DNA from: Amoebophrya sp. A120
Lineage: Eukaryota; Protista; Dinoflagellata
DNA length: 64,000 nt
Direction: 5' to 3'
Assembly: GCA_905178155.1 (NCBI GenBank)
Contig: CAJINV010000006.1
Location: forward strand, 1,737,876-1,801,875
Below are positions 1,428 through 60,361 of this stretch, in pieces. Numbering within the stretch: the first letter of the stretch is position 1; each line of letters begins with the position of its first letter. Both the position numbers and the translations under genes were made by a program. Below the pieces are notes generated by a model. It was not told where the DNA came from. It did no database searches and worked only from the letters and a program-made list of their open reading frames with translations.

Positions 1428-4400
1428 ATGGCCTCCGCAATTCTGAATGATTTTTTGAATGGACCGCTCCGGTCTGTTTCCGAAGCGTTGTTGGCGCCCC
1501 AGCCCTTCTACGGCCGCAAGTACTACTACGACGAGTGCAAATGGGGTAAGGCGACCAGCAACGGGCAGTTTTACCAGCAGTGCAACGAGCGGGCGGGTCC
1601 GGAGCCAAGGTTCGTGCCCACTATGCATTGCAAATATCGATCTGGGTCTGGAAAGCTGTAACTTGTGATGCTGCACTTGCATACTGCAAAAATCTGTATT
1701 GCATGAACATCAAAAGAGGTTCAGTTTTTGCCACGGCGAGGGCGCATTTCTCATGCAGTGTAGGCATCAGGAAGCTGTCACAAAATCTGTGATGCTGGGG
1801 CATGCATCACAGCCGTCAGGAGTCACGCAAAACGTGCATGACAAACCTTGCATCCTTCCAGAAATCCAGGGATATTTGCATTTGATACCCACCGACAAGG
1901 ACGAAGCGACGTTTTTCAAGAAGATCAATGGAGACATATGCAATTGGTGGAAAAGTACAACCGTTTACTAGCTATAAAAAATCGCATGACAAATTCCCTC
2001 AGCATGAAGAGCGAAATTTGTAATGCGGATTTATTACCGTGAGAGTGCAAGTTGTAATTATTATGCATGTCTACGATTAGGATTACTACGAAAACGAATG
2101 CGGTGCTTTTGCATTGCATAAGACAAAGTGTCCAACGACCGGAAACTCGCGCTGCTGATGGAGCCTGGCTATGAATTGCAAGAGTATCGTACTAGTATAA
2201 GTCGCATGACAAACTTCGATTTCCTCAGCATGAGAAGTAAAATTTGTAATGCGGATTCAACTCAACATGGAAATTTGTAATGCACAAATGCGATTAGTAC
2301 GAGTGCGATACCTTTGCAATGCATACTGGCCAGGGCGACGCGGTCGAGGCGGCGGCGAAACTGGGGCTGAAGCTCCCAAAGCACGTGTCCGCGGCGTACT
2401 ATCACGACCGGGTGGAGGAGTACGCCAGCGCGCTGCGGTCCAGCGTGACCAGCCACAACGGGAAGAATTCCCGGCTGTACCCGCCAACAGCGGGGATGCA
2501 GGACGCGGGAAACTTGGAGCAGCCCATCTTGGTGGTGGACGAGATCTCTCCTACGATTGAATCCACGGACCTCATGGACTTTAACGCGAGCGTCGATTCT
2601 GGGTATTTCTGCAAGTCCCCCAACCGCATCGCCGACGACGTTATCTATCCGGAGGCTAACGGCGCGGGTAACGACAGCACGACCACCTCATGGCTAGCGC
2701 AGAAACTGCACAAGGTGAAGAATTTCTTCCACCCGGCCGGCAGCAAAGCGGTCGCTTTTCACCCGACGTTCACGTTTCGCGACCCGATCCCGGGGCTGCT
2801 CCACGTCAAGATGCGGGATCTCACCACTGGCGCAGTGCACTGGGATCAAATTTTATGCATTGCGAAAGTTTCGTACTCCTACTCCTAGTGTTCGTATTGC
2901 AATACAACTTAGGTCAGCATGACAAATGGAATTTCTCATGCTGATTTAGCTTGAGGAAAATATTTGTCTTGCATGACTGCGATCAGAAGCACGAGTGCGA
3001 TACTTTTGCACACGATAAATTTTCAAGATGAACTACTCCACGGTGCTGGACGAAACCACGGAACCACTTGCGCCGGGGGAACACGAAGAAGCCGGCGAAA
3101 GCGATCTGCCACCGCTGACCGGAAACAACCGCCCCTTCTATCCGGTTTATCAAATGCAAATACGTCTGGATCTGGAACCGATTGTTGAGGTTTGTGCTGC
3201 TGCGTCTGCTTGACACAGAAGGCGTGGTATGGAACGCCTAGCATCACAGGTTTCGAGACGGTGTCCCGATGCCTGATCCGCATGACAAGCGCCTTCTTTC
3301 GGCGAGAGGACAAAAAGCTCCTTTTACTGTCCAAGCATGACAGATTTTTGTGTGAAGATCCAAGTATGCATCACAAGTTCGCATCCTTCCAGACCCAGAC
3401 ATTTTTGCATTTGATACGGTTTGCCCGGACGCGAAATCCCTGAACACCTTTCACCAGTTATCAAAATGAAAAATCCCCCCTCCCCATATTGAAACGGAAA
3501 CTTCTGTTGCTGGATTTGTGTACACAAGTCAGCCCTGTCTTGCAGCGAGGCACTACAGGCAAAGCCTCAGCCTGCGTAGGGGTGTTTTGTGGTAGGCTCT
3601 TGGCACCAGAGAGGCCTGCCATGTAGGTGAAACAGCATTACAAATCGCCCCCATAAGGCGGCGGATTCTTTGGGTTTGCCTTCTTGCAAGACAGATGTGA
3701 TTTGTGACCTCAAATCCGCAACGCAAATTTTTGGACACATTCTTTTTCGATATGGGGAGGGGGGATTTTTCCTCTCAATACCAGTACGAGATCACGTTCA
3801 AACAGGTGAAACCCTACCGGCGCCAGTACACGGACGCACAGTGTTATGGGGGTGTCAGGATTGAAATCGTCAAAGTTGAAATAGTTTGCCATGCATGAAT
3901 TGGATGCCAGTCGGAACCCAGTTTCCAAGTGGCGCACGACAAATTCCGGCGTTACCGCAATCCAGTTTGTCATGCTGTTTAGGCAAAGAGGACTGATTTT
4001 CTCATGCTACTTTAGCAGCTCAACCTCTAACCCCAAACAGGCTTACAATCGGTCTCACTTGGTTGCTCTGCAACACACGTAAGTCGCGTCATGCATTTTA
4101 TGCATGACAAATCATTTCAACTTTGTCGATTTCAAACCTGACGCTTCCATAAGTGTCGGCAAGCGGCGCTGAAGCAGGAGTTTCAAAATTACCATGCTGA
4201 AATATGAAATGCAAAAGCATCGTACTCGTACTAATCGCATTTTTCCTGCATTACAAATTTTTTTCTCAAGTTCAATCCGCATTACAAATTTCATTTCTCA
4301 TGCTGGGGAAATTTGTGATGCGATCCATACTAGTACGATACTTTTGCAGTGCATATGAAAAACCGAAAGCTGATGAGGATGCTGTCGAGGATAAAGTTTC

Positions 4401-6233: not shown

Positions 6234-6235
6234 AA

Positions 6236-6471
6236 TATGGCGTTCTCAACTGTTACATTCTCAACTGTTACATGAATTTGTGACGCAAGACTGGCAAAAG
6301 TGAAAGGAGGAAGATTGCGCCTTTTGCATTACAAGCCTGGCGCAGATTCAGATGCTGTCTAGCCCTTGCGAAATTTGTCATGCGAAGCAGCTCGATCATC
6401 TGCCGGCTTAAGGTGCTTTTGCATCACAAATCCATGTAACGGTTGAGAATGTAACGTTTGAGAACGCCATG
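6236..6471. mobile_element. Family H introner copy in the 3' flank of gene 1, without an intact TSD
   Basis: Starts TATGGCGTTCTCAACTGTTACA 2 nt after the stop and ends GAGAACGCCATG instead of ..CCATA; flanks TGAAA and GGCTA do not match. Confidence 0.75.
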
Positions 6472-16940: not shown

Positions 16941-18555
16941 ATGCTCGGCCTCCGTCCCAACATCGCCAAACTGCCCGAGATATGCACTGCAAAAGTATCG
17001 TACAACTCGTATAGAGCCATGCATAGCAAATTTCCCCAGCATGAGAAATAAAATTTGTAATGCGGATTTAGCTTAAGAACAAGATTTGTAGTGCATGGCT
17101 GCAATTACTATGAGTGCGATACTTTTGCAGCTCATACGAGAGGGGTAACAGCTGTGCGGCAGAAACCGCAAGGAAAACCACCGGCAGCCTCTACTACGAC
17201 TTTGCGGACAGAAAGGCACGAACTTTGTCGAGCGGGCAAGAACTTGCGGCCGCTGCTATAACCCGTTCAGGTGTTACAATCTCAAACGGTACAATAGAAT
17301 TTGGATTTTGTGTTGCATGACGAGCATGACAGACTCGGACAGCATTCCACTTTGCGCAATACAAATTTCGCCAGATTGTAGCGCGGTTTGGGACTCCAGA
17401 ACTTGTCATGCGCAAACCTATGAGAGTCGGCTACATAATGCACCTCTTGCATCACAGATTTCGATATTCTATTGTAACATTTGAGATTGTAACACCTGAG
17501 CAGATTATAGCTGCTGGTGCAACGAGTTCGACTTCCACCAAAACCACCAGATTCAAGTATCAAAAGGAAAAATCTTCCCTCCCCATATCGAAACGGTACG
17601 ATTCCGAAAATTTGTGTTGCTGATTTGAGACCACAAATCGGGTCTGTCTTGCAAGGAGATAAGCGCAGAGGCTTCCGCGCCATTATGGAAGCGATTTGGC
17701 ATGCTGTTGGGCCTAGGGGACGCACGTTTGTAATGCTAAACAACTAGACCCAAGCGCCCCTATCTAGGCTGAGGATCTGGCTGCGATGCCTTACTGCAAG
17801 ACAGCGCGCATTTGTGTACGGAAATCCCGCATCACAGATTTCCGTGTTGATATGGGGAGCGGGGCTTTTTCATTTTGATATCAAGTCCGCAGCCGCGAAG
17901 CCGATCTCGTCGAACCCGCAGCAATTTCCAATCGCCGCTTTGTCCGCATTATGAATTGCAAAAGTATCCGATACTTGTATAAAAAATGCATTACAAATTT
18001 CCTCAGCATGAGAAAGAAAATTTGTAATGCGAATTTACCTTGACAAAATACAATTGTAATACAACGAGTATCAGATACTTTTGCACAGGATACGCATCCA
18101 GACTTGCTAAGGAAGAGCTGGATGACGGGCCTATTTTGGTGGCGTGCCATATGGGGATGTCAGGATCGAAATCGTCAAAGTTGAAATAATCTGTAATGCA
18201 AAAAAGCCATACCAGCTGGAGCCCAGTTTGCAAGTGGCGCATGACAAATTTTGGCAGCATGGAAATCCAATTTGTCATGCTGCTTGGGCAGAGAAAACTG
18301 CTTTTGTCATGCTATTTTAGCAGCTCTGTCTCACACCCCAAACAGGATTATAATCGGCCTCAGTTGGCTGCTCTGCAAGACAGGCACTTTGCGTCTAGCA
18401 TTTTATGCATCACAAACTATTTCAACTTTGACGATTTCAATTCTGACGCTTCCATATGCCAGAAGCCGGTCGCAGTTTTGAAGGCACAAGAGGGCTTGAG
18501 AAAGAAGAGGCTTGGGGAGAAAATTTTGCCGGAGACCGTGAGGGCAGAAACGTAG
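16941..18555 (+). CDS. Gene 3: short hypothetical protein with 5 introners; true start may lie upstream
   Basis: MLGLRPNIAKLPE|RGNSCAAE..AAA|GATSST..RFK|SAAAKP..SA|SRLAKEELDDG..AC|QKPVAV.. to TAG at 18555. Perfect TSDs CGAGA, GCTGC, TCAAG, CGCAT and TGCCA. Confidence 0.7.
17257..17509. mobile_element. Introner family J (single copy here, ~44-bp TIR TATAAYCYGYTCAGGTGTTACAATCTCAAA)
   Basis: TSD GCTGC; removal restores the gene 3 frame. Confidence 0.88.
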
Positions 18556-20377: not shown

Positions 20378-20465
20378 TTCTGCATCCGAGGAGCAAGCTG
20401 ATGTCAGGTTGCGTTTTTTGCAACGACAACTACATAATATCATCAGGTACGTCCGTCTTCACAGC

Positions 20466-41200: not shown

Positions 41201-44200
41201 CGAGCCGGTGACTATGCAATACAAATTTCCCGCACATGCACAAGATGCATCACAAATTTCACCAATCAGGAGCGGAAAACTTGTCATGCTATTAACTAGG
41301 ATCGAAGCCAAGTTTTGTCATGTAGAGACCTCCGCGTTTGTACGTCCACGTCGTGTACGGGAAATTATTTCCTGTGGATAGTGACACAGGGGTGGGTGGT
41401 GCAGCCGTTGCGGCCAAGAAGAGGTTCTCTCTTATGCATTGCAAAAATGTCTTGGTCTGGAAAAGTGGAACTTGTGTTGCATGTCTTGCATCCCTGAAGA
41501 ATCTGTATTGCACAGCCAGCAAGAAAGGCGGTACTTTTTCGTCTTGTAAAAACGCAGTTTGTCATGCGTGCTACGCATCAGACGGCGTCAAGTATACTTG
41601 TCGTGCTGGGCTGCACTTGAGAGCGCCAGTCTTATCCATACTTTAGCATCACAAATTTCCAGACCCAGACATATTTGCATTTGATATCTCTCTCCGAAAG
41701 ACGATCTGCAGACGGTGAATTCCGTGCAAGTAAGGTGTCAGCTATGAGAGTGCACAACCCCTCCTCCGCCTCATTTGTATAGCATGAACGGCAATACAAC
41801 CACAAGCAAGAATGCCGGTTTCGCATGACAAATTTGAACTGGATCATTGTAGTGCTACTTGGGCTGCCATAACTTGTCATGCAAACAGTGCCAAGAGGCA
41901 AGGCCACCTAAATTAGGTATTTTGCATGACAAATGAGGGGGAGGGGGAGTTGTGCACTCTGATAGCAGCGGTCTGCAGAAAATCCGGAGGGGAAGAAGGA
42001 TTTGGTCGTATCCTGTGCAAAAGTACTTATCGTACTCGTACTACTTGCAAATATGCATGACAAGTGTTTTTCTCACGGTAAAACAGCATTACAAATTGTC
42101 TTGCTGAGCGAATTTCTGATGCAGTCGTACGAAGATACTTTTGCAATTCATAGGTCGATGCCGGCGACTACAAGAGCTACTGGAGCGGCATGGAGCCCAT
42201 CGCGGTGGAATCAAAAATCCCGGAACGGTGTCGCGGGGACGAAAAGACCTACAAGTGCGAGTTATTCGACAAGGAGTGCCGGGTCATGCCGGGAACCCCA
42301 AGCGAGGCTGAAACGCTGAACGCCCATGGATATGGATTGCAAAAATGTCTGGGTCTGGAAAAGTGCAAGGTTTGTCATGCTAGGCTAGCAAGACTCTTAA
42401 GTCTGTCATGCGCGTTACCGAAAGGCCTTATTTTTCTGTGATGCAAAAACGCAGTTTGTCATGCAGAATAGGCAACACTTAGCAGCTCAGAAACTTGTCA
42501 TGCTGAGCCATCATTTGTGGCCTCCACATTCTAAGTCTTGCAGCATTACAAGTTTCCAGACCCAGACATTTTTGCATTTGATAATGGAAGCGACGACGAA
42601 CCGGAAAGACCGCCGCCGTTACCGCCAACCATGGACCAAAACAGCCACATCGAGATGAAAGACGAAAACTTCGTGTCCGAAAACACCCCGGGGATCACGT
42701 GTAAACAACGGCTAGAGGCTTGTCAGTACAACTACAGCTTCCACGCTTCTAACCAGAACGAGACGGGGTGGACGCCGCCTTTGGGCTACCAGCCCGGGAT
42801 GAACCGGGAAAAACCACTTGGCCGGGCGCACGATTTACGACGAAGAAAAATTCCCCCTCCCCGTATCATTATCAAAACGGAAATCTGTGATGCAGATTTG
42901 TGGTCACAAATCAGCTTTGTCATGCTAGAAGGATAGTAGAGATGCGGGCTGTAGTTCTGGATGGCGTGGGAAGGCCTTGCGTCGTCAGCATGACAGGAGC
43001 CAGCTGGAAGTGGGAAACAGCATGACAAATTGCCTGCACCAAACGAGGCCACGACTTCTGCGGCTCTTGGCCTTCTAGCAATGCAAGGCGATTTGTGTAC
43101 TCAAATACAGCATCACAAATTTCGTCTTCGATATGGGGAGGGGGGATTTTTCCTTTTGATACGATGCGAAAAGCAGGAAGCTGCTGCTCGGGGAAGCGAT
43201 TGACGAGTACATGTTTCACTACCCGTATCTTACAAAAAAACTGTCTCAGTCTCAAACCTTTGCAGACTCAGCAACACAAATTTGCGAAGCAAGAAACAAA
43301 AAATCTCTGATGCTTCAAACAACAAGGGAAAACACATTCATACATAGGAAAGATCGATCTTTCTTGCATCTCAAGCATGACAAAAAACAGTCTCAAGGAA
43401 GTTGCGCATTACAAGTTCTTGAGACTGAGACACTTTTTTCTCACGATAACCCGGACCCGAAGGGCTTTTTGGGCAACCAGCTGGTCGAACGGTTAAAAAT
43501 CGGGCAGATGCCCGGGGAAGGCCTGGTGGCGCACTATCCAAGGAAAAAACTGTGTAGGTATAATTTTCTTGGAGGAATAGCATCACAAGTTTGCTCTGCA
43601 TGACACAGAAATAAACCTGTCATGCGTAGCTAGTACGTGAAAACACGACGTACGAAAAGAGCCTCTGATGCACGTCCAGCATGACAAGTGTAACAGTTTT
43701 GGATTTTCTGCGTCACAGACCTACGCTCACATAGTTTTTTTCTTGCATACGCACGTGTCCGGGTTTAACAACGAAACCGGGAAGTACAAAATCGTCCCGG
43801 TCGGGAATCCAGCGCTCGACGCGGAAAACGAAAATTCCGTGATCGGCAAGGAAATATGTCAGTGCACGACTCCCCCTCCCCCCTCTTTTGTCACGCAAAA
43901 GTCCAAATCCAAGTGCTTTCCGGTGGCACTGTTTGCATGACAGATTCAGGAAGCGGCCCAAACAGAACTACACTATCACTAGGCGCATGAGCTTGTCATG
44001 CACACGCTCCACGTGTGCTAGTATTTGTATTGCTGTTCATGCAATTATAGTACAAACGAGGGGGAGGGGGGGGGTTGTGCGGTCTCATAGGAAATCGAAG
44101 CCGCACGGAACGACCCGGATACCGGCGAAAAATTGGAGCCGGTCGATGGCTATCAACTGCAAATATCGATCTGGGTCTGGAAACTTGTGATGCATGTCAC

Positions 44201-47200
44201 TGAATAGTAACCACACTGTAATGCACCGCCAAGCATGACAGCTTTTCTCGGGGCTTTGTGTTGCGTATTTCGGATGAGAAACATCGTTTTTGCATGACAG
44301 ACAAGAGGAGGTGTTCCGATGGCCCGACGCAATACAGAGTTCTTCAGAGTCACATGCCAAACTAGCATGAGAAATCTCGCAATCTTCCGGAGGACCCAGA
44401 TCGCTATTTGCGATGCATAACGGCGTGTACGTTCGGTGTCACCGACAGGATTTCGGCTCCTTCTGGGACTGGGCCGACAACAACATCCCGGATGTATGCA
44501 CTGCAAAAGTATCGTACTCGTATTGCAGTCATGCATTACAAATCTTTTTATTAAGGTAAATCAGCATTACTACAAAATTTATTTCCCATGCTGAGGAAAT
44601 TTGTAATGCATTTATACGAGTGCGATACGTTTGCAATGCATAGGATGACAAGGGCGACTATACCGCAATCTACGGAGCTAACAACCAGAAAGCAACGAAT
44701 TCTATGCTCTGCAAAAGTATCGTACTAGTACAAACTGCATTACGATAACGATTACAAATTTGGTCAGCATGAGAAATGGAATTTGTCAAGCTGTTTAACC
44801 TTGGGATGGAGATTTTTGATGCATGAGTGCGATAATTACTACGAGTACGATACTTTTGCACAGGATAAATTCCTGGTGGCCGGCCCCCATCCGGAAGAGC
44901 GACGACTTGCCGGCCGAGTGCAACTACCGGCGGGGCAACGACTACTACCCGATGTGGATGGAGTTCAGTAACGTTCCCTATGAGCTCCGCAACCACCATA
45001 TTACAATGAAAAATGCCCCCTCCCCATATCAATACGGAAATCTGTGATGCAGATTTGTGGTCACAAATCAGCTTTGTGATGCTAGAAGGCAAAAGATGCG
45101 GACTGTAGTGCTGTCTAGCGTGGGAGTAAACCTATGCAGCTCCAGGATGACAAAAGGCAACTAGACAAGCGGGAAACAGCATGACAGATTGCCTGCGATT
45201 TAGGCCGCAGCTTCGTCTCTTGGCCTTCTAGCAATACAAGTTGATTTGTGTACTCAAATGCAGCATCACAAATTCGCGCATCTTCCGTTTCCGATATGGG
45301 GTGGGGGCTTTTTCCACTTTGATACGCCACACCATCTGGAAGGGCAAGGCCCGCGACGCGGGAGGCAATCCTATTCTGAGGAAAAATCCCCCCTCCCCAT
45401 ATCGAAAAGGTGTGCTTCCGAAAATTTGTGTTGCTGATTTGACGTCACAAATCACGTCTGTCTTGCAACAAGACAAGCGCAGAGGCTTCCGCACCATTAT
45501 GGAAGCGATTTGGCATGCTGTTGCGCCTAGAGGGCACCCTTTTGCAATGCTAAGCAGCTAGACCTATACGCCCCTACCTAGGCCGAGGATCTGGCTGCGA
45601 TGCCTTACTGCAAGACAAATCCGATTTGTGTACCCAAATCCTGCATCACAGATTTCCATTTCGATATGGGGAGGGGAGATTTTTCCTTTTGATAAATCCG
45701 GGGCATTGGTTTCCCGAAGAGCGGCCGGGAGACCAGAATGGCTTGGGTACGGGGAAGTGGAAACTGCCCATGCCCGGTATCAAAGTGAAAAAAGCCCCTA
45801 AGAACCCATACTCAAAAGACAATTTGTGTTGCTGGATTTGTGTACACAAATGAACTTTGTATTGCAGCCAGAGCTTGTGCTTGTCGGCATATTCTAAGCC
45901 CATTTCATCTTGGGCACGCATCCGGCTAGCAGGTGCGCATGAGAAACAAGTCTGACAGAGCAGGCGAAAACGCATGACAGACTGGATGCACATCAATGCG
46001 CCACATGGGTGCCGTTTGCATTGTACAACGCAAGACAAAGCTGATTTGTGGTCACAAATCAGCATCACAAATTTTCTTTTCGATATGGGGAGGGAAATAA
46101 ATTTTTCCTTACGATACCCGGGGTGGACATGCCGAACTGGGTCTGGAAGACGGACAAACAGCGGAAAGACATGAACCTGAACTGGAAAAAACTTCTCGTC
46201 GACGCGGCCCTGGTGCGCGTGCGACACTGGTATCATAAGGACCGGGAGTATGTCCGCGACCAGCACGTGTCCGCGGAGTATGCATTGCAAAAGTATCGTA
46301 CTCGTATAAATGCATCACAAATTTCATCAGCATGAGAAATAAAATTTGTAATGCTGATTTGCCTTAACAAGATGATTTGTGATGCATGACCGCAATACGA
46401 GCACGATACTTTTGCACAGGATACGGAGAAATACGAAGGAAAAATTTTGGGCACGATGGACCGAAAATTATGCAAGAAAAAAACATTGTTACGTGTAACT
46501 TTGTGATGCGCATCAACATGCATATGCAAGATGATTGCATCTGTCATGCTGGGCATGCGTTGCAAGGTCCATTCAGGAGCGTTTTCACGTACCATCTGCG
46601 CATGACAGGCTTTTGCTGTAATGCAAGACAGATTTGTCATGCTGTTCCCCCAAGATCAGAGTTACACCTACAATCTTTTTTTCTTGGATAGAAATTACCG
46701 CTGGAACAGTGGGGAGACACGGAAATGGTATAGTGAGTAGGATCATTTTTATTTGTAGTAAGTTGAAGTTGATACTAGCTCGTAGTTACTTCCTGTTCCG
46801 GTTGCTGTTCTATTGGTGTGAGGCAGATTTAAGAGGTTGCTTTCTTGTTCGTCATAAGAAAGTCAACTACTACCAAGCATGGCACCTCATTGTAGCATGC
46901 CGGTACTAGTAGTACCGCTTAGGAGAAAAAACATCAACATATATCATAAACGTCTCTCCCGCTCTACACCTACAGTATGACCTCCAACACTTCCGACCGG
47001 GGCCGCAACCCGAACTCACCATTCCGGCCCGCAACCTGCGCGCCATCGAGGGCGGACTGCGGATAACCTGCGGCGACAACAGCGAATGGGGAGATCGGGA
47101 GGGCATCGTGACCTCGTGGCGGCAGGTGCCGGAAATTTGCAAGAAGAACTTCAAGTGGAAGGTGCAGCTGTGGGGCAATCTGGACGACGATACTTCGGTT

Positions 47201-50200
47201 GCGGAAAAGCCGTATCAACCGCAACTACGTCTGGGTCTGGAAGCTTGTGATGCTCAAGTATGCATGAGTCAGGCGCTTTCAAGTGCAGCCAAGCATGACA
47301 AGTTTAGTTGACCACGCCGTCTGACGCGTAGCGCGCATGACAAACCGCGTTCTACTTCTTGCATCACAAAAAAATGGTGCCTTTGCTGGCTATGCAACAC
47401 AGATTTGTTTTCAGGAATGCAAGACATGCAACACAGGTTCCACTTTTATTCCAGAGCCAGACATATTTGCGATGCATAAGCCGGCAAACTGGAATCGGGA
47501 GCAGAAGGAGTACCGAAAATTCATCGAGTCTGTCCTCGCGAATCAGGCTATGGCCTGGCCGGCACCGCAGTCCAACATGCTCCAAGTCGACGCGATGTCG
47601 GAGTTATGAGAGTGCACAACCCCCCCCCCTCCCCCTCATTAATATTTACATTGCTTGACTTCCGGGTTCTGGTCCCGCCTACCCCCCGGCGACAGGTGAC
47701 CTTGACAGGTGACCTTGACAGGTGACCTTGACAGGTGACCTTGACAGGTGACCTTGACAGGTGATCGTGACAGGTTACCGTGACAGGTGACCTTGACAGG
47801 TGACCTGGACAGGTGACCTGGACAGGTGGCCGCGACAGGCGAAGCGTGAGGATAAAGCAAAGGCGAGGCCAGCGCCTGGGCGCAAATATTTATTTTTCAC
47901 GCCAAATGCCGCTCTTGACGTGAAAAATAAATTAAAAGCGCCAAAAAAAAAAAACGACGCAAAAATTGAAAAAGATTAAAGCTGTAACACAAACTGCCTC
48001 CATAAGCAAAGAAGTCTTTGCGTTCGCGTTGCCATGCAAAAATAAAAAAGCGGCTATCTCTGCAATGCACGGCCAGGAAACAGCTGCTCTCTTTGCTCTG
48101 TGGAACCGGAAAGGCGTTGCGCTTCAATATTAGAGAACTTTTTTGCAGAAGCCACACAGAGATATTCACTTTGCTTCTATTTTTGTTTTTTCTTGCAAAA
48201 TGCAGGGCGCCTAATTCGCCCTTTTTCCACTAGCGCTTCGCGCACTGAGCCACTACGCGCGCGCCTGGTGTGAGGCGAGGGGCGGACGCTGTCCGCCCCG
48301 ATGCCGAACACCCTTCCCCCACTAGCGCCACTAGGGACGAGCACAAGGCCCCAGCGTGGGGACCCTGTCCCCACGCTCGGGTGGGCCTTGTTTGTCATGC
48401 AAAATACTTAGCTTACGCCTTGCCTCTTGGCACTGTCTGCATGACAAGTTCTGGCAGCTGCCCAAATAGCACTACACTCCTGTCCACATTTGTCATGCGA
48501 AACCTGCATTCTTGCTGACGCTTGTATTGCTGTTCATACGATACTAAAAATGAGAAGAACGGGGAGTTGTGCACTTTCATACGAGTTCGAGTGCTCGAAG
48601 AAATGCTGTGGAAATCGGTTCTGCAAGTCGTTTTCCTATTTGAAAAACAAAACGAGGAAGAACAACTGCTTTATCAAGTGTAAAAATGTCTGGGTCTGCA
48701 AGAGTGGAAGATTTGCGATGCAGGTTTTCCATGACTCATGAGGTCTGTAATGCATGGTCTAGCATCACAGATTTTGAGAGGGCTTCCTCGTGCCTGTTCC
48801 GCATGAGAAATGCCCTCTCGCCGTGGCAAAAACTGGACTCCTCTCGCCGGTCATGCATTACAGGTTTTTTTTTGAATCCGAAGACAGCATTACAAGTTGC
48901 AATCTTCCAGACCCAGACATTTTTACATTTGATACGCTTGCTTTTCAAGCAACTCGACGCGGCGGTCATTTCCACGAAAGCTATGCATTGCAAAAGTATC
49001 GTACTAGTAGAAATGGCATGACAAATTTGAATAGCATGACAAATGAAATTTGTAATGCAGATTTACCTTAGGAAGCAGATTTGTATTGCATGATTGCAAC
49101 TGGTACGAGTACGATACTTTTGCAAAGCATAAAAGCGACGGAGCTGCGAAACACCCCCTGCGGTAAGGAGGTCTCGCACATGCAGTTTTGCCGGCAGACC
49201 GAAAAATACTGCAGCTACTTTGCCGACCCGAACGTCTCGCCGATTTTTTCGAAAGTGGATGAAGCCTCCCCGTTGACCACGCTAAGCGGAGATATGAAAT
49301 GCAAAAATACCTGGGTCTGGAGACTTGTGATGCTGGGTGGCGTATCATGAGGAGGCCACAAGTGCTGGCGCAGCATGACAAGTTTCTGAGCTTCTAGGTG
49401 TTGCCCACTCTGCATGACAGACTGCGTTTCTGCACGACAGAAAAATGGGTAGGTGGCTACCGTTTGAAGTTTATAAACGAATGGGACGCCCTGCCCTTAG
49501 CCTTCCAACATGACAGAAAAATGGGGCTGCTCTTGGGTAACGTGCATGACAGATTTATTAAGAGTCATGCCAGACAAGCATGACAAACGTGCACTCTTCC
49601 AGACCCAGACATTTTTGCATTTGATAGGAGAGAACGTGAAACAAGCGGCCGCGCCGAAGTGTCAGCAGTGTCCCGATTTCAAGAACGGAGAAACCTGTGC
49701 GTCCATATGAGAGTGCACAACTCCCCCTCCCCCTCATTTGTATGGCATGATCAGCATTACAACAACCAGCGCACGTAGGGCCTGCGCATGACAAGTTCAA
49801 GCTCACGCGCGTACTAGTGCAGTACTGTTTGGGCTTCCCGAAAAATCTGTCATGCAAACAGTGCCACAATCTGGCGCTTGGATTTGGTCACTTGCATTAC
49901 AAATGAGGGGGAGGGGGAGTTGGGCAATCTCATACTCCATGGTGCAGAAGCAGAAGGAGGCCGGGATGTTCGACGTGAATATTTCGAAGAGGATACTGTG
50001 AGGAAAACCGTTCCCACCTTAGAGCCAAGATGGAGATTTTGCAACACAAACCTAAAGAGTTTTGCGAGCCACGCATGACAAGTTCAAGTTGGAGGCTGTA
50101 TTGTAGTGCAGTTTAGCTGGTGCAACGGAATCTTCCGCATAACAAATCCACCTCCTTATAATCCTGTCTACAGCATTACAAGTTTCATCAAAACACGATT

Positions 50201-53200
50201 GGAAGGGCCTCTCTACTTGGGGATGCGCATCACAAATGCTCCTCTGCTTGCCAATCTGCATGACAACTACTCTGGTGTGGGAACATTTTTCCTCAGGATG
50301 GAGGAACGGGCAGAGCGCCGACATCGACGAGCAAGCCCGGGACATGCTGATCTCCGAGTCCAGTGCGAACTGCAACATCAATTGCCAGTTCGATCCGCGG
50401 CCGTGGAAAACGTGCAAACTCGACACGGTGGATATCCAGAGGAAATTTCCCGTACACGTACAAATCAGGTCTCTGCATGACAAAGCTTGTCTTCCATCCT
50501 ACTTAGCATGACAAGTGGCATGCTCTAAGTTGGCAAAATTTGTGATGCATTTTGTACATGTGCGGGACATTTCCTGTGGATAGTGGACGCTACCTACGAA
50601 AAAGACCCACTACCCGTCGTGTACGCGAGCGTCCGCCTCCGGCCCAGGATCAGAGAGTTATCAAATGTAAAAATGTCTGGAAGAATCCGAATTTTGTTAT
50701 GCTGTTTTTGCATGACACAGAATGTCTGTCATGGAAGCCCTAGCATCACAGATTTTTAGAGGCCTTCCTGATGCCTATTCCGCACGACAAATGCCCTCCA
50801 CGCGTAGCACAAACCGGACTCCTCTTGCTGGTCATGCAATACAGAATTTTTGTAGAGTCCAAAAATAGCATCACAAGTTTCAACCTTCCAGATCCAGACA
50901 CTTTTGCAATCCATAAGAGTGGGTGCCAGACGATTGCTGTGGCGGTGAGTGGGTGTGGAACTGGAATCAGCACGGCCTATGCATTGCAAAAGCATCGTAC
51001 TAGTATAAATTGCAATACAAGTTTCCTTAGCATGAGAAATAGAATATGTCATGCGGATTTGCCTAAATAAAAAGATTTGGAATGCAAGACTTGCATTTAT
51101 ACGAGTGCGATGCTTTTGCACAGCATACGGGCCCTGGACCGACTACCAACCCATCCGGGACATCTCGGACTTTGCGAAGTCGCGGTTCAAATTATCAAAA
51201 GGAAAAATCCCCCGTCGCCATGTCGAAACGAAGTCTGTAATGCTGGATTTGCGTACACAAATCACATTGGTCTTGCTGGAGAAGATGACTGTAAGTCCAT
51301 ATCAAGTCGGAGTAGAGCGGTCATGGCCTAGGCACTTAGCATGAGAGACGTCTGCGCTGTAGGCCCAACAGCATCACAGACCGCCTGCATAATGCGGCGG
51401 CTGTCTGTGGAATTGCCTTCTTGCAAGATGACTGAGGCGATTTGTGGTCGCGAATCAGCATTGCAAATTTTCTGCTCCGTAGCTTTTTGATATGGGGAGG
51501 CGGGGTCTTTCCTCGCGATACAAATTTCAGGGCAGCGAAGCGGAGCAGTCTATCACTATTAAAGGAAAGGATAGAGACACCAAGATGCGGCTGGGCCGGT
51601 CCAAACCCACGGAGGGGTTTGGTTCTTCCTGGGAAAAGGTCCTATCCCAGAAAAAAAGATTGTAGCTGTAACTTTTTTGGCTGATTAGCATTACAAACCT
51701 GTCTGGCATGACAGCAGAAACCTGTCATGCGCAGATAGCATGTCAAAACGCGCTTGAATGAGAATGAACCTTGCAATGCATGTCCAGCATGACAGACGCA
51801 ATCATCTTACGTGTTGCGCATCACAAACTTACACTAACAATGTTTTTTTCCTGCATAGGTGCCCGTAAGCGACGAATACCCGGACGGGTGGCGGTACCGC
51901 GGGAAGGTCGGGGAGATGTTTATCAAAGTGAAAAATCCCCCCTCCCCATATCGAAAAGGATCGCCTCAGAGAATTTGTGATGCTGATTTGTGACCACAAA
52001 TCATGTCTGTCTTGCAAGAGAGCGACGGCATGGGCTCCGCCCTATTATGCAGGCGGTTTGTAATGCTGTTGGTCCTACACCATAGACGTGCCCCATGCTA
52101 AGCGCCTAGGCCAGAACCTCTCTCCATTGGCGTGGTATGGGCCTGCAGTCCTCTACTGCAAGACCAATCTGATTTGTGTACGCAAATCCAGCATTAGAAA
52201 TCTCGTTTTGATATGGGATGGGGGCTTTTTTCACTTTGATAATGTTGTTTCCGCGGCCCTCCAAAAATATGGCGGTAGACCTGCAGTTTATGGTCAAGAA
52301 CTCCGACGGCCACAAGATATCCTGTGCAAAAGTATCGTACTCGTATTGCAATCATGCATTGCAAATATTTTTCCTAAGGTAAACCAGCATTACAAATTTT
52401 ATTTCTCATGCTGAGGAAATCGAAATTTGTAATGCATTTATACAAGTACGATGCTTTTGCACTGCATACAAGACCACCGTGAAAAATATCGTGGTGCCGG
52501 GGCGCAACGAGAAGCTGCAGCAGAGGTTTTTGCCGTTTTTCCCCACCGACTACTTCAAAAAAGTCCAAGACATCTATGACAGTGCACAACTCCAACCCCC
52601 CCCCCTCATTTGTATGGCATGAACAGCAATATAACCACCAGCACACATGGAGCCTGTGCATGACAAATTCATGTGCCTAATGTAGTACTATTTGGGCTTC
52701 CGGAATTTGTCATGCAAACAGTGCCACAAGGCAGCGAGAGCGACTGGATTTGGGATTTTGCGTGACAAATGAGGGGGAGGGGGAGTTGTGCACTGTCATA
52801 ATATCGGCGGGGTGCGGAAAGTCATCCAGAAAGCGTGGCGGATGAAGAACGAGATCAACCCGGTATCCTATGTAAAAACGTCCCCACAACTTCCGCCCCA
52901 GAGTTGTCATGCAGATTTGCAATGACAGGAACATTTGTGATGCGCATACCCATGATAGTCATCTCATTGCCATTTCCAATTGTGTTTTGAAATTTGTAAT
53001 GTTGTAAACAGGATGAGTAGATAGCTTTGTGATGCGGCTGTCCTTGCTAACCTGAACTACACCACGGACTGTAGCGCGTCATGCGTGACTCCCAAAACTT
53101 CTGGATTTGTGTTGCGCACTGCCCAAAAATCAGTGACTCCGGGACGAAGGTGGGGACCACGTTTTTCCACAGGATACCCGGACCGTGGAATTTTTCGGAA

Positions 53201-56200
53201 CGCCATTGTGGAATTCGTGAACCGGAAGAAGATACGCATGGCAAAAGCATCGCAATCATAGTGGGAACAATTGCATTACAAATTTGCGCAGCATGAAGAA
53301 TTGAATTTCTCATGCGGATTCGCGCACAAAGATAGATCTGTCATGCGTGCTTGCAATTGATTCCACCTGTCCTGAATGCGATGCTTTTGCACAGGATAGA
53401 AGGCCAAGGTGCTCTACTGGGACCCGGTCCACGAGGAGGCCGTCTTGCAGGACTTGGCTACCTATGGATTGCAAATACAGAATTTGTGTTGCTGAAGCGC
53501 GCATCGCAGAAGGTGTCCGCTTGTACGGCATGATAACAGCATGAGAAATTTTGCGAGGCTTAGGTTTGCAGATTCACTCCTCGTGATAAAACGCATGACA
53601 AAGAACTTCACAGCATGACAAAAAAAACTAGCGACTCGTATTCACGCATCACAGATCTTGTAGTCCTTCAAAGCTCGCATGACAAAGACCGTCGATATTT
53701 GCAACGCATACTACCTCGCGCGTGTTCTACCAGCAGCGACCGGAGGTGCACTTTCACGCCCCGAGGGCTAAGGACAACTACACCTGCCACGAGGGGATCC
53801 GCGTGCAGACGCGGTTATGCACTGCAAATATGTCTGGGTTTGGAAGGATGCAGCTTGTCATGCTAAATTTGGATCATGCAAAAATTTGTGTTGCATGATT
53901 ACCAAAAACTGTCCATTTTTGACCAAGTTGGGAGTGAGTTTCTCTTTCTCATGCAGGATAGGCATGATACAGATCATCTCACAGAATCTGTCATGCTAGA
54001 TCCTGCATTGCAGACCTCATGTGTCATGTGGAACCTGCATGAGAAGTCTTGTATTCTTCCACACCCAGACATATTTGTACTTGATACCGGTTGCACGAGA
54101 TCAAAACCGTGACCGCGCCGTCGCAGGAGGAGTGCGCGGTGCAGTGTGTATCCTGTGCAAAAGTACCGTACTCGTATAAGGAATGCCAGACTAGCATGAC
54201 AAATCTGGTTTCTTAGGTAATTTAGCATGACAAATTATTAATTATTAATTTTTCATGCTGAGCTAATTTGTAATGCAGTTTATACTAGTACGATGCTTTA
54301 GCTTTTGCAGTGCATAGTGTGACAAGCAGACCAACTGCGAGAGTTTTGACTTTTTCAAAGGCGAGGAAAAGTGGCGAACGTCGAAGCAAATGAACTGTCA
54401 TCTCTACTCGAAGAACGGGCACACGAAAGAGCTGCTCTTGCGGGACAGGTATCAAGTGCAAACGTGCAGCCTGGGTCTGGAGGAAAACTGTGATGCCGGT
54501 TTGTTAATGGTAGGCGCACTGCAACTTCTATACGCGGCGAAGCATGACAAAATTTTCAAAATCCTATCACACCCAGATCCATGTTTGCAATGCATAACAG
54601 GCAGGGGTTGCGGAAGGAAAAAATCCATTTTGGAAGACGCAAGGCGGACATTAACATGGACTTGGAAAATATCAAACAAAAAAAGTTCGTCACGATCATT
54701 CATGCGCATTTTTGCAATACAAAACTTTCTGTCATGCGTAAAAATGCATCACAGCCAAGCTTCGCGAGGGATCTCCCTAGCGTTTGTGCAAGACAAGGAC
54801 AAGCTTTGATGCTAAAAGTTTTTGTAATGCAAAACCTGCAAGTTAGTGACATGACTGTGACAAACTTTTTTCTCTTCATAGAAAAGGTGCTGCCAAACTA
54901 CAAGCAGAGCAAGCACAGCAACGAGTATTCCCGGATGGGAATTTAGGCAAAGAAAAAACTGTTTCACTGTCAACTTGTAATGCAGAAAATGCATCTTAGA
55001 AGTGTTTGTCTTGCTACACATGCAAGACACTGGATTTTTAGCTGTGTTTTCCCATTGGAACCTCGCATGGCAAATTGTCTCTGTCATGCGGAACAAACTT
55101 GTGATGCGAAACTTGCAAAATCCTTACAGTGAAACACTTTTATCCTGTGATAGAATTCCGTTCCTCGAAGCACCTCTGAAGCCCGACAAAGAGCAGGAGA
55201 AGACTTTCATTTTCCAAATCCCGTGCGTATAAACTGCAAAGGTATCGTACTAGTATAAATTGCAATTATACAAATTAGCTCAGCAGTACAAATTGAATTT
55301 GTAATGCGGATTTCACTTAAGAAAAAGATTTGTAAATGCATAAAAGCAATTAGTACGAGTACGATACTTTTGCACTGGATAGTGCGAGGCGTGCATCAAC
55401 TCCTGGGCCCGACACGGCATGGCGGTCACGGAAACCAAGGATTTCAACCAGGATATCGCAAGGGAAAATCCCGCCTCCCCATATCGAAAAGGTATGTCTC
55501 AGAAAATTTGTAATGCTGATTTGTGACCACAGATCGTCTCTGTCTTGCAAGAACGCGGTCGGTTTGTAATGCTGTTTGCCCTACAGCCTAGACGTTTGCC
55601 ATGGTCAGCGACTAGCCCAAAACATCTCGTCTGCTCACTCTTACTATAGGCATGCAGTCCTCTCAAGCAAGACAAATCTGACTTGTGTACGCAAGTCCAG
55701 CATTGGAAGCCTCGTTTTGTTGATATGGGGAGGAGGGACTTTTCCTTTTGATACAAGACCTGGACCCCGACAGCGCCGGCGATTTTTCCAAAAGCGTCCA
55801 CATGGGCACCGGCGCCACCAGGGGACTGAACGGCGCGCGAGACCGGCTGTGGTGCAGAAACGGGAACGGTGCCTTGGTCAATAACCGATGCTCGGTGCAG
55901 GAGCTGGGGCACGCACGGCGGTATCGAATGCAAATGTATGTCTGCTGGGTCTGCTGGTGAAGACTGTTGCAACTTGTGATGTGCTACCTTTGGACTGTTC
56001 TATTAGAACAGTCCAAAGGTAATTTTTATCAAATAAAAATCTGTATCGCCTGAGCAGAAAGAAGAACAGTCCAGTTTTTGCTACGTGGACGACGAGGAGC
56101 ATTTCTCATGCCCGGATGGACATCAAGGCGGCTTCTTCAAAACGTCTGTGATGCTGGGGCCTACGTTACAGATCGATCATGCGTCATGCAAGATGTGCAT

Positions 56201-59200
56201 GGCAATAAACGTAAACCTTGTATCCTTCGTGCAGACGCAGATCCAGACACAATTTGCACTGCATAGGGGGAACCGGCAGGCAAAATGGTATACGAAGGGC
56301 ACGTATCAACTGCAAAAATGTCTGGGTCTGGAAACTTGTAATGCTGCGTTGGGAATAGTGAATGCTCTGTAATGCACAGGCAAGCATGCGAAATATCTGC
56401 GCACCTTTGTGTTGCGTTTTTCGCATGACAAACTGCGTTTTTGCATGACAGGCAAAAGGGTCTCTTCTTGGACACGCATCACAAACTTTTTGGTCATGCC
56501 AGACAAGCATGACAAGTCTCGCAATCTTCCAGACCCAGACATATTTGCAATCCATAGCACGTTGGATTACGAGGAACAGGACGAGAAGGGCCGCATGGTG
56601 AGAAAGGAAGCCATATCCCGTGTAAAAACATCCCCACCCCAGAGTCAAGATAAGTGGCCACATTATACCATAGTTATTTCCGTACTTCACCTACGTCATT
56701 CTCTCCTTTTTAACTTCAACAAAGTTCGAAACTTCTCTGTGCTTTAAATTTGGTCTTTTCCAGTACATAAAACACCCCAGAGTCAAGATGGCGACTTTTT
56801 GCTACACAAGTCAACAAGTTTAGGCTGTTCTGCATGACAGATTTGAGCTCGTAAGTAGGTAGTCCTGTTCAGCTAGTGTGTTCGTATTACAAATCGACAA
56901 CCCTATCCTGCTTGGAGCATGACAAACTCCCAGGTAATATTAGAAAACGCTCCAGCTCTGCATGGGGCTGCGCATGAGAAATGTTCTAGGCTCGCAGATT
57001 TGCATGACAAGTCTGGGGCGGGAGCGTTTTTGCGGAGCATAAACCAAAGTGATTGACAGAGTGCCAGATGAAGGCATGTACACCGAGCCCGCAGTTGAGG
57101 CGAAAGACGGGCGCCACATGTATCCACAGTACTTCTAAATCATTTCCCGTACTGCGCACACAGTGACAGCAACAGCTACAGCTGCGGTTTCTACTGCATC
57201 ACAAAACTTGCCTTCGATCCTAGAGTCAGCATGACAAGTCGTGTTACACTCTAGTACGTCATGGCGAACAAGTTTGTCATGCACTTTGCACATCGTGTAG
57301 TACAACGGGAAAATAAAGATAAATTTGTATTGCATAACATGGTACAGGACCACATTACGCCGTACAGGAAGTATCTTTGGGGCTACGGCCGTGTAGAGAT
57401 GGGTCTTAACGAGGACGCACCGGAGTACTGGCACCATTGCGACCGGAAAAAACCGCACACCGGAATCTACCCAGAGTAAACTTCCCGTACGCGTACAAAG
57501 CTGGTTTCTGCATGACAAACTTTTCTTCCAATTCTACTCAGCATGGCAAGTGACATGCTCCAACTTGGTAAAATTTGTCATGCATTTTGTACATGTACTA
57601 CAGGAAATTTGTATTGCATAGAATTATCAACAGGAACAGTAGCTCCGCTGTCATCAACAATTCCATGATGCAGGAAATTTGCCGACCCGCCTGGGAGCGG
57701 CCCGGTGTGGCGAACGGAGTCGATATGTGCCACTCACGGTGTGTGTTCGAGTTGCAGGGAAACGGGAAGGAGACATCCTTGGTGGATGGAAGCAAAAACG
57801 AGAAGCCGGGGGGTATCGACCAGGATATTTCCTGCCGCAAAATGTGCTTGGACCATGCGATTACGCCCTACAACCCACGGTGGGACGATTTGGACGAAAA
57901 CATGAAGGCGGTGCTGATGAAGGATCAGTACGTGGAGTCTCCGGAGGGAACGAACACGGGGAGGAACAGCAACCCCGGAGCCATCAAGCTCCGGCCGTAC
58001 CTGAACAAGAAGTGCAACGCCATCTACGACTTTTTCTGCAGAAAAGACGCTCCGGGGAGGTCCCACTGGGAGAAGGGGAACCCGCCACCGCACCCAAAAG
58101 ACAAGGACAAACCCCCGTCCAAGTGGCATCACGGGAGGTGGCCCTTCACGCACGACAGCTACGAGTGCATGGACCTCCACGACCCCATTCGCGACGAGCC
58201 GAACCCCATCGACCCCAGCTGCTGTGGCGGCTGGGCCGAGCCGTTCTCGAACAACCACGGGCGGTACAGCAGCTGGTCGCCGTTTCCGAAGATTTTCTGC
58301 AACCAGTTCTACCGCACCGATATGGCGTTCGGAAAACGATTTGGGCAGGAACTGGGCGCAATCGACAAGGAGCACGACCCGGTGGAGACGCCCAACGTGC
58401 CGGAGGGCGAGTTGAAAGCGGTCGACCCGGTGACCGGAGACACGACTACGTTCTCCGGCTTCAACAAGCATCGCCAGCGGGGGCACTGCGAGGTGCCGGA
58501 GCGTGGGAAGTATCATGAGGAAAAATCCCCCCTCCCAATAATCAGGCGGAGGTTTGTGTAGCATGATTTGTGATCACAAATCACATTGTCATGCTAGAAG
58601 GGAAGAGATGCGGAGTGTAGTGCTGGCTGGCGTGGGAATAAACCTTTGCGTCTTCAACATAACAAAAAACAACTAAAAGTGGGACACCGCATGACAAATT
58701 GCCCGCAAACGAGGCCGCGACTGTGTCTCTTGGCCTTCTAGCAAGACAAGTCGATCTGTGTACGCAGATCCAGCACCACAAATATCCTTTTCGACATGTT
58801 GGGGAGGGGGAATTTTTCCTCACAATAGAAAGCCGATGGATATCATCTACCCCTGGGAAGACCACCACGGGGATACGGTCGGGAAGCGAAATATGGATGT
58901 GTCAGGATCGAAATCGTCAAAGTTGAAATGATTTGCCATGCATAAAATGCAAGACATGAAGCACCTGTCTTGCCGGGATGGCAAGTGAGGCAGATTGTGA
59001 GCCTATTTAGGGTTTGGGATAGAGCTGCTAAAAGAGCATGACGAAAGCAGTCTTCTGTGCCCAAACAGCATGACAAATTGGATTCCGGTGCTCCGAAAAT
59101 TTGTCATGCGCCGCTTAAAAATTAGGCTTCCAACTGGTATCCATTTTATGCATGACAAATCATTTCAAGAACTTTGTCGCTTTCAAACCTGACGCTTCCA

Positions 59201-60361
59201 TACGAAACAAACGATACACCATGGACCCAGATATGAATCGCAAAAGCATCGTACAACTATTAGTATTTGCATTACAAATTAGCTCAGCATGGCAAATGGA
59301 ATTTGTCATGCTGTTTTACCTTGGGATGGAGATTTGTAATGCATAACTGCAAGAATTACTACGAGTGCGATACTTTTGCAGAGGATACCAGAGTCCTGTC
59401 TACAAATGGGGCATTCAGTGTTCAAGGAAATGGAGGACGCGTATTACGATTTCGCGAGGCTGCAGTCCGGGCACCAGGGGTCCGGCCGCATGTTCGCGTG
59501 GGACGCGGTAGATAAAAGGGCGTACCACGGAGGCATAAGAGATGTTCGCGGCATGCGGTGGCATGAAAACAATACGAAGGTGACCATGGAGCAGTGCCGC
59601 ATGCCGGTCGTCATGGTAACGAAGCACATGGGCGATCAGGAAGCTAGCTCCTTTGACGTGTCTCCCATGAAGCCTGCCTGCCGGTATGCGAAGAAAAAGC
59701 TGTTTCACGGTTTTTACACATTGTGTTGCAGGCATCGCAAGACAGACAAGTTCTGTCATGCCGAAGAAGATGCTCAGGAGCCTAGAGTTTCATACGTGTT
59801 TATTTCCCTACCGATTTTTGCATTGCAAGTTTTCTCTGTCATGCAAGGCAAATGCAAATTTGTGATGCTGAGTTGTTCATTACAGATGTGTAACCTCTGC
59901 AACACTTTTCTCCTTTGATAGCCGGGTGCACATCGCCAGTAAGGATTTCGAAGATAAGGACCCGAACGACACAGATACGTACTTGCAGCAGTCGGAAGCC
60001 CTGGGCGTATCAACTGCAAATATGTCTGGGTCTGGAAGGGGACAAGTTTGCCATGCACATTTTCCATGATCCACGATGTCTGTTATGTATGCCCTAGCAT
60101 CACAGATTTTGTGAGCGCTTATCGATGCGCACCCCGCATGAGAAATGCCCGATCCACGTAGCCAAATTTGGCTGCTCTTGCTGCTCATGCAATACAGATT
60201 TTTTTAGCATCCACATGCAGCATCACAAGTTGCACTGTTCCAGACCCAGACATTTTTGCAATGCATAGCGCGCCCTTCACGACGAGACAAACAACGGAAC
60301 CGAGGGTGTGGAGGGCATCCCAGAGGACGGGGCGGACCTACCGGAAGGAGTCTCGGTCTGA
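38201..60361 (+). CDS. Gene 7: very large Cys/Trp-rich protein with at least two PAN/apple-like domains; about 58 introners and one canonical intron; start uncertain
   Basis: Frame traced by hand without a stop from ATG 38201 to TGA 60359-60361; GT-AG intron 46728-46975. The spliced motifs ECSKKCCGNRFCKSFSYLKNKTRKNNCLLFK and EECAVQCDKQTNCESFDFFKGEEKWRTSKQMNCHLYSK match the PAN pattern C-x3-C-x5-C-x-SF-x-Y/F..C-x-L. No signal peptide seen at the provisional start. Confidence 0.8.
38797..39977. mobile_element. Long (1.18 kb) introner-like TIR element with a truncated right end
   Basis: Starts TATGCCTGGG; 38812-38857 is an imperfect inverted repeat of 39935-39977; TSD GGTGT/GGTGA; internal AAAATTCACC repeats at 39435-39480; no credible ORF. 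Confidence 0.75.
46728..46975 (+). other. Canonical GT-AG intron
   Basis: GTATAG..CCTACAG, phase 0, joins WGDTEM to YDLQHFRPG. Confidence 0.8.
47641..48390. mobile_element. 750-bp insert nested in a family D introner (47605-48581); Helentron/HINE-like architecture
   Basis: Interrupts the family D TIR in its TTT run (CCCCCTCATT|..|TTTGTCATGC). It carries a 13-bp tandem array and ends in a long hairpin at 48343-48391. Confidence 0.7.
47691..47839. repeat. Tandem array, about 11 copies of GACAGGTGACCTT
   Basis: Directly visible; each unit contains the palindrome AGGT-G-ACCT. Confidence 0.95.
49706..49934. mobile_element. Introner family D representative (about 210-245 bp; TIR TATGAGAGTGCACAACTCCCCCTCCCCCTCATTTGT)
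   Basis: TSD GTCCA/CTCCA. Other copies at 9052-9277, ~9908, ~13164, 14486, ~41743, ~43856 and ~52576. Confidence 0.92.
50433..50582. mobile_element. Introner family I representative (TIR TATCCASAGGAAATKTCCCG)
   Basis: TSD GTGGA; related copies at ~41214, 57121 and ~57468. Confidence 0.85.

Follow-up and report, generated by a model that had tools for sequence, protein, structure and literature searches.

How can one short motif recur inside families of DNA elements that otherwise share so little, and what reads it? The question is raised by 64,000 nt of the genome of the marine parasite Amoebophrya sp. A120 (contig CAJINV010000006.1, positions 1,737,876 to 1,801,875; this whole stretch is called the window, and positions without a prefix refer to it), in which 123 short elements of the form TAT…ATA, assigned to no single strand, lie between 1622 and 60267. 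A preliminary description, made from the sequence alone, had noticed GCAT(G/T/C)ACA(A/G)A in each family and had proposed a shared cis code bound by one factor (a common transposase, a host DNA-binding protein, or a splicing factor) as the way in which the families all became removable. Here we observed that within an imperfect palindrome of 27 bp, TTTGTNATGC-N7-GCATNACAAA (10-7-10), the motif forms the strong half and the other half is usually weak, and that these palindromes stand in pairs at a set distance.

The elements were cataloged from their ends and flanking repeats and then curated by eye, with families defined by clustering; counting began after exclusion of three doubtful candidates, of which two start at 18739 and 49741 and the third is a short call at 56614. 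The catalog totals 28,253 bp of non-coding DNA, with both orientations in every family: A (49 copies), B (22), C (13), D (12), E (8), F (5), G (5), and H (4), plus five singletons, two of which consist of E-type and G-type ends enclosing insertions. All elements start with TAT and nearly all finish with ATA; in 95% of the strict ends, TAT at positions 1-3 is followed by C or G. TAT-N7-AAA is present in full in five of the eight family consensuses, and E, F, and H share only TATG. An exact 5-bp target duplication flanks 85 of 121 elements, without a clear base preference, and the identity of the flanking repeats is 0.93 at length 5 versus 0.24-0.30 at lengths 2-4 and 6-9. Exact 6-bp duplications were found at none of the 121 window elements and at none in the second-assembly set described below. 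Being short and multicopy, with terminal inverted repeats, a duplication of fixed length, and no transposase gene, the elements qualify as MITEs (miniature inverted-repeat transposable elements). Their TA..TA ends differ from the TG..CA termini of Ginger1 and Ginger2.

Within the window, GCAT[GTC]ACA[AG]A has 244 matches (131 on the plus and 113 on the minus strand). Elements hold 233 of them, or 8.25 per kb versus 0.31 per kb for the 11 matches in the other 35,747 bp, and 200 dinucleotide shuffles of the elements gave a mean of 1.05 matches and a maximum of 5. At least one strict site is carried by 46/49 copies of A, 20/22 of B, 8/13 of C, 12/12 of D, 8/8 of E, 5/5 each of F and G, 4/4 of H, and 5/5 singletons, in keeping with the earlier statement that every family has the motif. 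Exons and intergenic DNA are nearly free of it, as had been described: among the 11 outside matches, six lie in clear decayed copies (alignments of 47-130 nt to elements), four have only 28-30 nt of resemblance, and one has no match to the element library. The refined profile is GCAT(G/T/C)ACAAAT, with variants such as GCATGAGAAA. Outermost sites begin 31-55 nt inside the ends, roughly as first given (about 30-45 nt) but over a wider range. After masking of motifs and ends, a single one of the 28 family-consensus pairs (D-G, through a terminal G-rich stretch) beats its 200 shuffles, so the families can indeed be called otherwise unrelated. The dissimilarity first claimed for ends and bodies alike applies to the bodies; the ends have TAT in common and mostly TAT-N7-AAA.

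The palindrome emerges from the flanks of the motif. In the family-weighted flank, TGC stands at -10 to -8, and the commonest letters from -17 to -8 spell the reverse complement of the half-site. At a spacer of 7, 18 of 41 consensus sites have at least 5/9 weak-half matches, versus 0-4 of 41 at nine other spacers; the weak half is poor in many sites, foremost in A and G. Raw distances between sites peak at 31-33 for tandem, at 15 and 33 for convergent, and at 17-18 and 48-50 for divergent pairs. When measured from palindrome centers, tandem 31-33, convergent 15, and divergent 49 merge into one distance of 31-33 bp, and the offset that collapses both opposite-strand classes is 4 nt, which is the palindrome center, as a palindrome predicts. 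Of the 32 gaps between neighboring sites in the consensuses, 15 measure 31-33 bp, whereas 20,000 null trials averaged 1.6 and never exceeded 9; counted in copies, the figure is 161 of 380. Such pairs occur in all four orientation classes.

Site layouts are nearly symmetric relative to both element ends. Family F has gaps of 32, 49, 32, 55, and 32 and lies 54 bp from each end (for example 18150..18456, plus strand, 307 bp, with centers at 54, 86, 135, 167, 222, and 254), and the D consensus has gaps of 31, 52, 32, 52, and 32 and lies 56 bp from each end (45372..45694, plus strand, 323 bp, three site pairs). Site-to-end distances have modes at 44-45 and 52-56 bp and minor ones at 33 and 64-67; those of family A (30-31, 35, and 39) fall outside the general modes. 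We claim no helical period for these distances, the circular statistic being flat (0.56-0.62) over periods of 10.5-13. A nucleosome-length rule was rejected, as no common unit divides the element lengths of about 108, 145, 171, 209, 226, 260, 290, 307, and 320 bp. Perfect-palindrome matches in five viral contigs were dismissed as chance, each contig having one palindrome and no further half-sites.

The arrangement was replicated in one other assembly, where a search with a family A pattern returned 85 stretches from 79 loci. This set comes from a related genome with shared families, and it tests replication rather than independent origin. It contains 407 distinct elements, none orthologous to the window, and the 5-bp repeat is exact in 302 of 395 short elements, inclusion having required that it differ at no more than one position. 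All eight window families recur with the same spacing. Family A was left out of the gap counts because the search was built on it; in the remainder, gaps of 31-33 make up 105/235 of the ++, 121/247 of the --, 92/225 of the -+, and 18/112 of the +- class, and the offset again peaks at 4 nt (108 and 26 pairs in the opposite-strand classes). Of 19 elements assigned to none of the eight families, 18 have a site, and 12 of their 26 gaps measure 31-33; types absent from the window thus follow the spacing. The smallest type, of 108-122 bp, carries a single pair (L048:3723-3830, L056:612-720, L061:904-1012), and one of 170-174 bp carries up to two.

Could the sites have no present function and simply be relics of one ancestral element and of the internal duplication of a unit some 32 bp long? 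The common TAT ends and 5-bp duplication do imply that the families are related by origin, the same arrangement with an 18-bp gap recurs in A and C, and the terminal stretch is common to D and G. However, 27 of 28 masked consensus pairs have no similarity above shuffles, and spacing is kept across inverted orientations, unlike in tandem duplication. The conservation contrast that the preliminary description had suggested examining largely refutes this explanation, with cores three to four times better conserved than bodies. Deviation from the consensus is 7.2% in cores versus 27.4% in bodies and lower in the core in 8/8 families, a contrast that is partly circular in that sites were called on consensuses. 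Private changes, each confined to one copy and counted over 217 copies, affect 1.8% of core, 3.8% of terminal-repeat, and 5.7% of body positions; context-matched, 67 private core changes were observed versus 262 expected, with search-selected copies still included. We give a purely vestigial origin the least credence of all the readings considered here.

Mismatches within the target duplication were tried as an age clock and rejected. Body divergence is the same in copies with and without such a mismatch (0.054 and 0.053); mismatches thus do not track body divergence, and the clock is doubtful.

The elements are removed as introns. A spliced contig of 5,676 nt from run X7, taken as RNA by guess only, lacks 46 of 46 elements, each gone together with one copy of its duplication, and additionally lacks one GT-AG intron (46728..46975, plus strand). 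After removal of these 46 elements and that intron from the window, 13 of 13 checkpoints agree with the spliced contig at one offset (104). Thus a family A element of 145 bp (46279..46423, plus strand; half-sites 46312+, 46330+, 46345-, and 46376-; palindrome centers at element positions 30, 48, 80, and 111) is absent from the contig, and for a B element of 253 bp (42331..42583, minus strand) the contig skips 42326-42583, that is, the element and 5 nt. A cut after base 4 of the repeat fits all six mismatched-repeat junctions on which the cut position is based (40995, 42836, 55454, 55922, 57468, and 58511), so the intron reads N-TAT…ATA-NNNN. GT-AG could be obtained at any cut in just 6 of 123 elements. 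Raw RNA runs X9 and X10 (134 and 9 reads, mostly 90-95% alike and confined to element sequence) were left unused, and the second-assembly loci yielded no empty insertion sites, none of them being orthologous to the window.

Removal does not depend on how the sites are laid out. An element of 977 bp whose family E ends enclose a large insertion (47605..48581, plus strand) has its first site center 437 bp from the left end, one of 428 bp with G-like ends and an insertion (56614..57041, plus strand) has it at 215, and both are removed exactly; the same independence is seen at 55922. Nor does it depend on the strand of the sites. The earlier statement that each copy has sites on both strands does not apply to family G, in which they lie on one strand only: a copy at 49994..50300 (plus strand) has six internal sites, all sense to the gene, the 56614 element has sense sites only, and a copy at 52864..53176 (minus strand) has five, all antisense, with strands unchanged at a lower threshold. 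All three are removed. As family G is one-stranded and yet spliced either way round, a single-strand RNA signal or an obligatory fold-back is unlikely. The proposal that the motif accounts for removability is not supported, removal persisting where sites are lost or displaced.

An action of the motif in RNA, as a splicing-factor site or through complementary pairs that stabilize an end-joining fold-back, has some support from predicted folds of 44 RNA-verified elements, where, of 2,013 motif bases, 898 have their partner in another motif, and scrambling the motifs costs 9.0 kcal/mol versus 3.75 for control 10-mers. This agrees with the part of the preliminary description that had the sites pairing and adding stability. 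The fold-back itself fares differently in the same check, with a predicted probability of the terminal stem that is unaffected by scrambling (0.77, 0.78, and 0.78) and with 0 of 110 motif bases in family G paired with a motif. Over the 46 RNA-verified elements, internal sites are 116 sense and 97 antisense; sense-only and antisense-only copies are both removed, and the 31-33 spacing spans the orientation classes only when taken from palindrome centers. We regard an RNA role as very improbable. A spacing of three helical turns irrespective of orientation would be a property of double-stranded DNA, and the evidence on a shared cis code points to double-stranded DNA, not to RNA. The idea of one code read by one factor is thus upheld by conserved palindromic sites at fixed spacing across non-aligning families, and its splicing-factor version is not.

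The elements themselves are already known; the shared motif, the palindrome, and the spacing rule appear to be new. The A120 introners of Farhat et al. 2021 (PMC7789003; this and the other publications are cited from the parts of their text accessible to us) have inverted repeats of TAT, seven looser bases, and AAA, direct repeats of 3-5 nt, no coding capacity, and non-canonical splice sites, the nine leading types of which all start with NT. The window elements match them in ends, duplication, non-canonical splice sites, and lack of coding capacity; the difference is that the text of that paper describes no internal motif common to families, no palindrome, and no spacing rule. Many introns in the published A120 splice tables end in AN, perhaps because their position within the repeat is ambiguous. 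Gozashti et al. 2025 (PMC12130899) class most of 58 A120 family rows as DNA elements with terminal inverted repeats and unknown superfamily. Their lengths (about 148, 208-227, 252-260, 278, 305, and 319-340 bp) resemble those of the window families. Unlike our analysis, that study treats the families as diverse in origin, and its accessible text has no shared internal site. Literature searches did not find the motif, palindrome, or spacing, which are also absent from the accessible text of PMC7789003, PMC12130899, PMC11282704, and PMC12005148; Farhat figures S19-S25, the bioRxiv supplements, and Roy et al. 2023 (Curr Biol) could mention the motif.

What, then, reads the paired sites? We think it probable, by a modest measure, that they are subterminal binding sites of one shared, probably integrase-type transposase that moves all families in trans. 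Each palindrome, in double-stranded form, would be occupied by a dimeric protein; separated by three helical turns, two dimers would share one face of the helix and cooperate near each end. One pair would be the minimum, with long families adding pairs. The protein would be an integrase-type DDE transposase from the neighborhood of IS3EU and GingerRoot, as the TA..TA ends may indicate, that cuts at TAT and inserts through a 5-bp staggered cut. Splicing would be separate and guided by the terminal RNA stem, the cuts falling 1 nt ahead of TAT and 4 nt past ATA. The uniform 5-bp duplication and the shared TAT ends suggest one enzyme. A tyrosine recombinase, whose core sites can have a 10-7-10 form, was set aside, the random 5-bp duplication pointing to a staggered cut. 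The 5-bp duplication and subterminal repeats would also be compatible with hAT elements that make 5-bp duplications (hAT5).

Repeated end motifs that are bound, sometimes cooperatively, by the transposase are familiar from Ac/Ds, CACTA, the inverted repeat/direct repeat structure of Sleeping Beauty, Tn7, and Mu. For MITEs, Emigrant and Lemi1 provide a precedent of subterminal repeats bound by a transposase (PMC1636448). Unlike in those arrays, at least 10 non-aligning element types here share one site and its spacing and double as introns. IS3EU and GingerRoot (PMC10045372, PMC6839031) are similar in their TA..TA termini and in a duplication without nucleotide preference; the differences are a duplication that is usually 6 bp there and terminal repeats of 100-150 bp in GingerRoot, versus 5 bp and shorter repeats in the window. 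As IS3EU and GingerRoot usually have 6-bp duplications, we have not filed the elements there. The best candidate relative may be A120 family 38, which is annotated in the supplement of PMC12130899 as 'Ginger, 5-bp TSD, TA/TA termini' (TSD, target-site duplication) and has integrase-related open reading frames. In the circle junction of IS2, a member of the IS3 family, the catalytic centers are separated by 5 bp and the junction spacer is 1 bp (PMC3299598). Similarly, if the two ends of a family A or B element were linked through a single base, a 10-7-10 site with one strong and one weak half would form again; this holds only for these two families and is a lead, not a result.

Several observations weigh against a shared transposase. 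The TGC trinucleotide at spacer 7 is found in only 6/107 sites of A, 0/24 of D, and 0/9 of G, and some gaps are off the rule, namely 18 (A, C), 20, and 39-40 (B). The terminal repeat is not a copy of the motif, a half-site match being found at only 2 of 16 consensus ends. No match to a Pfam transposase family was obtained among nine window open reading frames or among the 59 tested of 102 locus open reading frames (at least 260 amino acids). The duplication is 5 bp rather than the 6 usual for the nearest named groups. Farhat et al. (PMC7789003) report no complete transposase in A120 and took this absence to exclude a general mobilization by transposase. Finally, private core changes amount to 63 of 3,452 positions versus 82.7 expected from half the duplication mismatch rate (2.4%; P 0.014, leaving out 70 copies selected by the search pattern; with them P is an inflated 7e-7), which leans toward some selection after insertion, although by a doubtful clock.

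This last point favors a host protein that binds double-stranded DNA and reads the paired palindromes, either as an architectural helper of transposition or, in a stronger version, as a chromatin mark that recruits the excision machinery to nascent RNA in a cell without U1. All of the DNA-geometry evidence fits it equally. Core changes are fewer than those of terminal repeats (1.8% versus 3.8%) and stay below half the rate of duplication mismatches, A120 has no known transposase, U1 was not detected there (PMC7789003), and the terminal repeats of E, F, and H diverge from the rest beyond TATG. By contrast, only one structural class (TAT…ATA, 5 bp) carries the motif; the RNA-verified canonical intron at 46728-46975 has zero matches, other inserted repeats have none, and copies with few or displaced sites are still exactly removed. 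The set distances between sites and ends are relevant to cutting DNA ends. We consider a host factor a serious rival, though less likely than the transposase. An improbable variant is that the paired palindromes are an intron mark on double-stranded DNA, through which a host protein, perhaps a domesticated transposase, would direct the excision machinery to nascent RNA, standing in for the missing U1. If this were true, any pair-bearing element with TAT ends would become a harmless intron in either orientation.

Part of a host gene (41965..60360, plus strand, end approximate) forms an open frame of 1,794 amino acids once elements and the canonical intron are removed; the start of the gene probably lies further upstream. 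The predicted protein is cysteine-rich, and its sole homolog, P0001 (726 amino acids; 55% identity over 39% of one exon), carries PF00024. Removal of elements from other genes yields frames of 710, 1,307, and 263 amino acids. Some other regions remain broken, probably because of canonical introns outside the removal model.

Further examples are a C element of 215 bp (43535..43749), an E element of 229 bp (49706..49934), and an H element of 252 bp (24482..24733), all on the plus strand. Three singletons (54450-54596, 53463-53710, and 21982-22154) have B-like ends with their own or shortened bodies, and the spliced contig lacks the first two. The insertion in the 977-bp element holds a tandem 13-nt repeat at 47665-47868. 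In the second assembly, family-type ends enclose unrelated DNA at L016:1561-2313, L021:3096-3834, L032:7213-8030, L035:1388-1808, L048:3904-4432, L055:1746-2273, L065:1617-2092, and L073:2129-2941, and an element of 1,104 bp with a new terminal repeat (L008:505-1608) shows an F-like layout at just one of its ends and is GC-rich and repetitive inside. Other insertions seem to land often in introns made of elements. Repeats of other kinds are present as well. At 25050-25700, a repeat of GTGAGAA/TTCTCAC words without the GCAT motif includes a near-perfect inverted repeat of 75 nt (25392-25546) and sits between 70-nt direct-repeat copies at 24979, 26089, and 26789. The two copies of a duplicated 250-nt stretch (18494-18737 and 20180-20431) enclose a decayed B copy and an insert rich in GC (about 19000-20200). 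A 43-nt direct repeat (38753-38795 and 39981-40023) flanks a GC-rich intergenic block, possibly another insertion type with a long duplication.

Farhat et al. (PMC7789003) stated two questions to be open: how tens of thousands of non-canonical introns spread in Amoebophrya when no transposase is known, and how these introns are excised in the absence of U1. One palindromic site and a spacing rule would unite at least 10 A120 element types into a single mobile system. The paired palindrome would provide a defined DNA bait for the protein and a signature for finding an autonomous element. Two codes can be separated in these elements, a layout in the DNA that is likely to serve movement and, with a likely role in splicing, a terminal stem whose cut position is fixed.

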